64,000 nucleotides of DNA from an uncultured Bacilli bacterium (GTDB taxonomy: Bacteria; Bacillota_I; Bacilli_A; RF39; UBA660). This document shows, piece after piece, positions 13,762 through 13,850 of this stretch; position 1 is the first letter of the stretch; every line of letters starts with the position of its first letter. A program made the translations under genes and the position numbers. The DNA lies in contig CANROU010000001.1 in the NCBI GenBank assembly GCA_947632325.1, positions 7,997 through 71,996 of the forward strand, read 5' to 3'. The notes beneath the pieces are model-generated. The model did not search any database and had not been told where the DNA came from. It worked only from the letters and a program-made list of their open reading frames with translations.

Positions 13762-13812
13762 AACATCTACTCCTTATTATACACCATTATATAATAACCC
13801 CCCCCCCTTGTC
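13376..13812. repeat. direct repeat copy 1 (LXG N-terminal coding region + 5'UTR + promoter)
   Basis: 13376-13777 is identical to 16780-17181. Similarity continues with 2 mismatches and a 1-nt homopolymer length difference through the promoter. Confidence 0.85.
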
Positions 13813-13850
13813 AACTTTTTGTTACCTTTTTCGATGTATTATAAAGAGCT
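13771..13850 (-). promoter_or_regulatory. promoter of LXG2 operon: TTGACA-A-G10-TTATTA-TATAAT (17-nt spacer containing the G tract)
   Basis: Read directly on the coding strand. The C10 run at 13798-13807 lies between the -35 and -10 hexamers. The 5'UTR that follows carries AAGGAG. Confidence 0.55.

Follow-up and report, generated by a model that had tools for sequence, protein, structure and literature searches.

The window, that is, the whole 64-kb stretch of DNA analysed here, contains a locus that on sequence grounds can be assigned to the type VIIb secretion systems (T7SSb), as both the EssC ATPase and WXG100 substrates are present. All T7SS units of the window lie on the minus strand. 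There are three of them, and each has a run of G residues in the spacer of its promoter, the machinery operon included. The first unit, downstream of promoter P1, comprises toxin 1 (780 aa; 14823-17165), which combines the N-terminal domain common to the toxins with a variable C-terminus and matched no Pfam family, and a cassette of small genes (13929-14854) encoding proteins of 93 and 96 aa and a 116-aa DUF4176 protein. The second unit, downstream of P2, comprises toxin 2 (1230 aa; 10069-13761; named 'LXG2' in the original prediction) and a cassette (9010-10060) encoding a 224-aa candidate immunity protein and a 127-aa DUF4176 protein. The third unit carries the secretion machinery. Its first gene past P3 is an esxA-like WXG100 gene of 97 aa (8404-8697), the start of which is backed by the gene calls in a near-clonal comparison contig (L021). 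The remainder of the unit (571-8389) contains a second WXG100 gene (8099-8389), a WXG100-LysM gene (7576-8046), toxin 3 (590 aa; 5787-7559), a DUF4176 gene (5444-5782), EssC (829-5424) and, at its end, an 84-aa protein (571-825).

EssC scored 1036 bits against TIGR03928 (cut-off 778) and the esxA-like 97-aa protein 44.9 bits against TIGR03930, for which the cut-off is 44.85. The Pfam WXG100 family matched all three WXG100 genes, and three DUF4176 genes are found at the locus. The 84-aa protein of the window matched no Pfam or NCBIfam family; the 84-aa protein that occupies this position in a sister locus (contig L032) gave a weak match to YukD. The Pfam families of EsaA, EssA and EssB were found neither among the locus genes scanned nor among the genes called in L032 and L033, and these components may be encoded outside the locus or have diverged beyond detection. 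In its gene content, the T7SSb locus appears minimal, both in the window (571-8697) and in L032 and L033. The EssC of this small clade has no precomputed FHA-domain matches, which relatives at ~50% identity do have.

Terminator-like hairpins lie ahead of each promoter on the minus strand: one upstream of P1 (17341-17365), an AU-rich hairpin of 16 bp with a trailing U run upstream of P2 (13869-13910), and a hairpin followed by a U run directly upstream of P3 (8821-8857). Each unit should therefore depend on its own promoter. The structure of the 160-nt intergenic region upstream of P3 is not unusual (z = -0.97). Between cassette 2 and P3, at 8935-8970, the contigs of three independent assemblies (L019, L020, and L024) end within ~20 nt of one another; three other assemblies read through this region, the sequence of which is unique in the window and shows no unusual structure. 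It is possible that the site is a strain-variable junction, at which, for example, a further cassette is inserted in some strains.

The N-terminal domain common to all three toxins is ~130 aa long (13357-13761 in toxin 2, 16761-17165 in toxin 1 and 7158-7559 in toxin 3, all on the minus strand). Toxins 1 and 2 are identical over residues 1-129, and the N-terminus of toxin 3 is 61% identical to that of toxin 2; the C-termini of the three proteins are unrelated. The original prediction had labelled the toxins LXG. This label finds no backing in the family databases: neither the three toxins nor seven N-termini of the family matched the LXG domain (Pfam PF04740) or any other Pfam family, even at E ≤ 10, and NCBIfam likewise returned nothing for them. 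Among 1.84 billion representative proteins, HMMER, run exhaustively, retrieved only 11 with the N-terminal domain at E ≤ 0.001, three of which are the window's own toxins. A profile of the seven N-termini matched the WXG100 structures 3o9o and 3gvm over its full length, but weakly (E 0.045-0.067), and AlphaFold2 predicted helices at residues 8-95 in a model of toxin residues 1-300, with a pLDDT of 37.6 that is too poor for a fold search. A word-indexed homology search with the toxin N-terminus found nothing, and a scan of JGI metagenomes gave only four weak matches, which are probably spurious (41% identity over 44 residues). The domain represents a very rare family, helical by prediction and possibly WXG100-like. 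It contains a conserved 'RNTD.EVLNR' motif, and its relatives bear other toxin C-termini, such as an ADP-ribosyltransferase in L036 and L042.

Judging by architecture and neighbourhood (DUF4176, WXG100, EssC), the three large proteins appear to be T7SS polymorphic toxins that work like LXG toxins. As in the LXG polymorphic toxins of T7SSb (TelA-E, YxiD, EsxX), a conserved N-terminal domain, predicted to be helical in the window's toxins, is combined with a variable C-terminus and with WXG100, DUF4176 and EssC neighbours; in contrast to those toxins, the N-terminal domain in the window matches no Pfam or NCBIfam LXG model. In Streptococcus suis, a DUF4176 protein reportedly stabilises an LXG toxin.

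Promoter P2 (13786-13814, minus strand), upstream of the toxin-2 cassette, consists of TTGACA (13809-13814) and TATAAT (13786-13791), which match the consensus at 12 of 12 positions and are separated by a 17-nt spacer. Read on the minus strand, the order is AAAAAGTTGACA-A-GGGGGGGGGG-TTATTA-TATAAT-GGTGTATAATAAGGAGTAGATGTT-ATG, in which the GGGGGGGGGG slot is a G10 run (C10 at 13798-13807 on the plus strand). The sequence thus agrees with the predicted G10 run in a 17-nt spacer between consensus hexamers. The ATG of toxin 2 at 13761 is preceded by AAGGAG, 8 nt away. Promoter P1 (17190-17217, minus strand), upstream of the toxin-1 cassette, has the same hexamers at 17212-17217 and 17190-17195, and between them A-G9-TTATTA (G9 at 17202-17210), which amounts to a 16-nt spacer. 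In promoter P3 (8761-8791, minus strand), upstream of the operon that runs from the esxA-like gene to essC, TTGACA (8786-8791) is followed by T-G9-TCCTTATTA (G9 at 8776-8784) and TATAAT (8761-8766); its spacer contains three extra bases (TCC) and measures 19 nt. Tracts at the same position had been predicted for these two sister promoters. Both G9 runs are present at 17202-17210 and 8776-8784, but the spacer around the latter differs by the extra TCC. The tract at 8776-8784 had also been grouped with the toxin promoters; with the esxA-like start at 8697, P3 heads the esxA-essC machinery operon instead.

Perfect TTGACA and TATAAT hexamers, as judged from the sequence, surround the tract in P1, P2, P3 and the esxA-operon promoter of a sister species (L033). 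A promoter scan of the 8-18 kb region returned P1 and P2 as the sole 12/12 consensus promoters; it allowed spacers of 16-18 nt, and P3, with 19 nt, is absent from its list. P3 is followed by a leader of ~57 nt and by a second TATAAT, which begins 5 nt past the first, its first base lying 11 nt downstream. A second TATAAT is also found after P2. It was considered as an alternative -10 element and rejected, because the matching -35 position would land within the G run.

In a full homopolymer census of the 64-kb window, the tracts of P1, P2, and P3 were the only G/C runs of at least 8 nt, and the longest G/C run besides them was a C7. Seven overlapping G8 matches were observed, compared with a mean of 0.26 in 100 dinucleotide-preserving shuffles, none of which reached seven. 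The GC content of the window is 29.1%, rather than the ~27% given originally; the accompanying statement that a 10-mer G run is extremely unlikely by chance is borne out by the shuffles. Within the T7SS locus, the only other G/C run above 6 nt is a G7 (C7 on the plus strand) at 6825-6831, which falls close to codon 243 of the toxin 3 gene. The toxin 3 homologues in L032 and L033 are without this run, which is possibly a weaker frameshift hotspot.

P1 and P2 lie within two copies of a repeat of ~485 bp (bounds approximate), located on the minus strand at 16733-17233 (copy 1) and at about 13330-13830 (copy 2). Each copy spans the promoter, the 5'UTR and the first ~129 codons of the toxin; apart from the G9/G10 indel and two substitutions within the 5'UTR, the copies are identical. 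P1 and P2 thus go back to one recent 485-bp duplication and do not constitute independent evidence. The upstream module of P3 shows 80% identity over 98 nt with that of the toxin promoters, and a common upstream module (GTAACAAAAAGTTGACA and the G run) is found ahead of all three units.

A different arrangement of these cassettes (13786-17233 in the window) was seen in sample ERZ27249080 (L015, positions 7300-7800), where a P1-type promoter (G9, GTGTGTGAT leader), together with the M23-peptidase gene, runs straight into the 1230-aa toxin-2 gene. The entire toxin-1 cassette is absent from this arrangement, and the sample yielded no match to the DUF4176 protein of that cassette. The arrangement points to recombination across the 485-bp promoter-plus-N-terminus repeat, by which a cassette was lost or gained; an alternative is an assembly collapse at 3.8x coverage.

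Contigs for comparison were obtained by exact-protein look-ups in ENA and Logan samples. They are near-clonal with the window, from which they differ by roughly seven substitutions and two indels over ~49 kb of overlap. The P2 tract is G10 in the window, L001, and L004, and G9 in L002 (coverage ~3.8x). L002 bears the P2-specific 5'UTR, and the tract is its sole difference from the window over 1091 bases. The P1 tract is G9 in 4/4 sequences (window, L015, L016, L017), as is the P3 tract (window, L021, L022, L023). All tract lengths were taken from assembled consensus sequences and not from reads, and since the contigs of the window species have 2-4x coverage, the G10/G9 difference at P2 carries little weight on its own. 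Two contigs that end in the tract (L003 and L018) were considered as a sign of heterogeneity and rejected, as the break coincides with the point where 31-mers become common to the duplicated promoters. At 8398, in the 14-nt gap between the two WXG100 genes and near the ribosome-binding site of the second, the window has A5 and L021 has A4; this difference may be a low-coverage error.

A search with EssC revealed relatives that are 77%, 76%, and 69% identical, the next ones being at only ~50%. Relatives of the window organism occur in animal gut samples. In the sister species with the 69% identical EssC, the promoter of the esxA operon reads TTGACA-AACTGCTA-Gn-TATAAT. Its contigs stem from four runs of one study (SRR279999xx), in which n was 12, 9, 9, and 11, resulting in spacers of 20, 17, 17, and 19 nt, respectively. 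L033 and L039 have 0 mismatches over 6297 columns, and a 3-base gap in the tract is their only difference; L040 (1.6 kb) and L041 (1.1 kb) likewise differ by the tract alone. Five A7/T7 runs in the same 6.3 kb showed no variation, which argues against general homopolymer noise. Heterogeneity of tract length across samples, which the original prediction had named as a check, is thus weakly positive at P2 (G10 versus G9) and clearly positive at the sister-species promoter (9/9/11/12).

Outside the hexamers, the sister-species promoter could not be aligned with P3, and the tract abuts the -10 element in the sister species and the -35 element in P3. This indicates that the conserved feature is a G run inside the spacer and not a particular sequence. 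In the species with the 77% identical EssC, the contig begins with 'GG' exactly at the expected tract position, where the tract length is not readable. No G tract was found at the esxA promoter of the species with the 76% identical EssC (WXG100 87% identical; armadillo gut, PMC10654083), nor in the ~50% EssC relatives. As the 76% species has none, T7SS regulation in this clade does not depend on the tract, whose distribution across the lineage appears patchy. A search of a genome collection, consisting of species representatives without the window organism among them, for the pattern ACAAAAAGTTGACA, a gap and TTATATAAT yielded nothing but generic consensus promoters, which came from unrelated Clostridia and similar organisms and had no G tract.

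The sequences display the features of contingency promoters: runs of at least 8 G/C (G10, G9, and G9 in the window, G9-G12 in the sister species), a position between the -35 and -10 elements, and lengths that differ among otherwise identical genomes. We consider it probable that the T7SSb units each start at a consensus sigma-A-type promoter, in which a slipping G9-G10 spacer tract sets transcription. The tracts are located inside consensus promoters, and their length is polymorphic in otherwise identical DNA; where transcription starts, how expression responds to tract length, how often the tract switches and whether it switches back are inferred. Slipped-strand mispairing at replication would lead to the gain or loss of G's, and the resulting change in spacer length would alter how well the two hexamers fit RNA polymerase, both rotationally and linearly. 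The transcriptional output of each unit would then go up or down heritably, reversibly and independently of the other units. For P2, maximal transcription is predicted with G10 (17 nt) and reduced transcription with G9 or G11; for P1, G9 (16 nt) would be the reduced and G10 the maximal state. P3 would be weak or off with G9 (19 nt) and maximal with G7, and the esxA promoter of the sister species would be on with G9 (17 nt) and off with G11 or G12 (19 or 20 nt). With the G9 that is most frequent in the sister species, and with the G10 of P2, the spacer measures exactly 17 nt.

Given that the hexamers are perfect, the gain or loss of a single base around this length would probably act as a volume control and not as a strict on/off switch, and the step between 16 and 17 nt may change the output only modestly. 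The difference between 17 and 19 or 20 nt in the sister species is the more switch-like contrast. The phase-variation reading of the original prediction is thereby retained in part: the tract does lie in the spacer of a sigma-70-type promoter and varies in length between samples, but states of 16, 17, and 18 nt are probably graded, given the perfect hexamers. Against slippage speaks that in the window species P1 and P3 are invariant (G9 in 4/4 each) and that the single change, by ±1, is at P2. In addition, a P3 spacer of a 'weak' 19 nt in 4/4 assemblies is odd for a machinery operon, unless this operon is usually off or helped by an activator.

It is an evenly balanced question whether three independently slipping tracts let a clonal gut population mix the states 'machine on/off', 'toxin 1 level', and 'toxin 2 level', as a combinatorial bet-hedging of interbacterial weaponry and immunity. 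This would be the first case of a promoter-spacer contingency switch that controls a T7SSb machine together with polymorphic toxins, and the Bacillota lineage concerned would have evolved or retained such tracts in at least two species.

The same observations can be read in other ways. The tract could be real but neutral, copied among paralogous promoters by duplication or gene conversion, with length differences that reflect sequencing, PCR or assembly noise or a harmless polymorphism. The origin of P1 and P2 in one 485-bp duplication, the 2-4x coverage of the window-species contigs, the occurrence of another one-base homopolymer indel (A5 to A4 at 8398) and the derivation of some Logan assemblies from Nanopore runs (SRR23925000) all speak for such neutrality, which we nevertheless regard as rather unlikely. 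Platform noise does not account for consensus contigs that differ by 2-3 bases, are otherwise the same over 1.1-6.3 kb and have unchanged A7/T7 runs. Moreover, a G run of 9-12 bases is strongly disfavoured at 29-30% GC, and still two species retain one in promoters that cannot be aligned with each other, in every case with consensus hexamers on both sides.

Spacers of 19-20 nt are typical of activator-dependent promoters. P3 has 19 nt in 4/4 assemblies and the sister species has 19- and 20-nt forms, and the common upstream module of GTAACAAAAAGTTGACA and G run before all three units suggests co-regulation. The G run could on these grounds be a fixed cis-regulatory feature of T7SS promoters, either a binding site or a DNA-shape element for a common regulator, with incidental length differences; a MerR-type-like activator that compensates for the over-long 19-20-nt spacers is a possible example. 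However, inspection of the surroundings of the tract showed no dyad symmetry or operator-like repeat, no regulator gene was present among the locus genes scanned, and the tract adjoins the -35 element in one species and the -10 element in the other. In addition, lengths of 9-12 in clonal DNA are more variation than a protein site should tolerate; we judge a fixed element to be unlikely. Such an element would be compatible with slippage, as the tpr promoters treated in passages of PMC7864442 pair a poly-G run with a CRP-like factor. That the true promoters lie elsewhere, and that the G run is transcribed and acts via reiterative transcription or as a 5'UTR element, is highly improbable. The ~57-nt leader and the second TATAAT of P3 would suit a transcribed run; the perfect TTGACA and TATAAT hexamers around the run in four promoters, the terminator-like hairpins immediately upstream and a search of Rfam, which gave no RNA family match at the locus, all argue against it.

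Slippage in a promoter spacer is a known, textbook mechanism of the porA type; what is new is its context, the T7SSb of an uncultured low-GC Bacillota lineage. In Neisseria meningitidis, porA (poly-G) and opc (poly-C) have, as here, a G/C homopolymer in or at the -35/-10 spacer. According to the passages on these genes in PMC7864442, the poly-G run of porA separates the -10 and -35 elements, transcription being lost when the spacing deviates from 17 nt, and slippage from the 17-nt optimum in porA and opc results in high, intermediate or no transcription. The porA and opc tracts belong to outer-membrane antigens of Gram-negative pathogens, whereas the tracts in the window belong to a secretion machine and interbacterial-type toxins of a low-GC, gut-type Bacillota lineage; here, three linked promoters bear the tract. 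In Treponema pallidum, poly-G runs of at least 8 upstream of tpr genes vary within and between isolates, and reporter output is length-dependent (passages on tpr in PMC7864442). T. pallidum is a GC-rich spirochaete in which poly-G is common, and the position of the tpr tracts relative to the hexamers is less clear-cut than here. In Mycoplasma hyorhinis, poly-A tracts in the -35/-10 spacer switch several paralogous vlp genes independently of one another, which results in combinatorial states. The vlp tracts are poly-A as opposed to poly-G and belong to the surface lipoproteins of a wall-less organism; M. hyorhinis is not known to possess mismatch repair.

Regulation of T7SSb is mostly framed in terms of two-component systems and environmental cues. 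Homopolymer slippage touching type VII secretion is known from Group B Streptococcus and Mycobacterium tuberculosis. The Gn tract of Group B Streptococcus lies in the coding sequence of essC and acts by frameshift and truncation, in contrast to the promoter-spacer tracts of the window; a regulatory role for it is only hypothesised by the authors (PMC9900821). For M. tuberculosis, ESX-1-associated indels in homopolymer tracts are described in passages that do not give their position (PMC11898584, PMC10334774). The literature searched contained no report of promoter-spacer tracts for T7SSb or its toxins, in line with the original remark that such a switch had not been described for T7SS LXG toxin operons in Firmicutes, and a 2026 review of Lactobacillales T7SSb makes no mention of homopolymers or phase variation.

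Should transcription be tuned by the spacer tracts, antagonism mediated by the T7SS can be a trait of subpopulations that is both stochastic and heritable. This would affect the reading of competition assays, metatranscriptomes and MAG-based predictions of 'toxin repertoires', and a low-GC Gram-positive gut lineage would join the organisms in which poly-G contingency promoters are at work. Public reads already allow a direct test of the hypothesis.

Elsewhere in the window, at 26028-28941 and thus ~9 kb away from the T7SS locus, there is a gene of the Fic/DOC family, along with one for an AbiEii-type nucleotidyltransferase toxin. This is the part of the window with the lowest GC content (23-26%) and may be a small defence or toxin-antitoxin islet. 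The sole Rfam match in the window at the gathering threshold is an L31-Firmicutes ribosomal protein leader at 40522-40550 (37.6 bits), which is consistent with a Bacillota chromosome.
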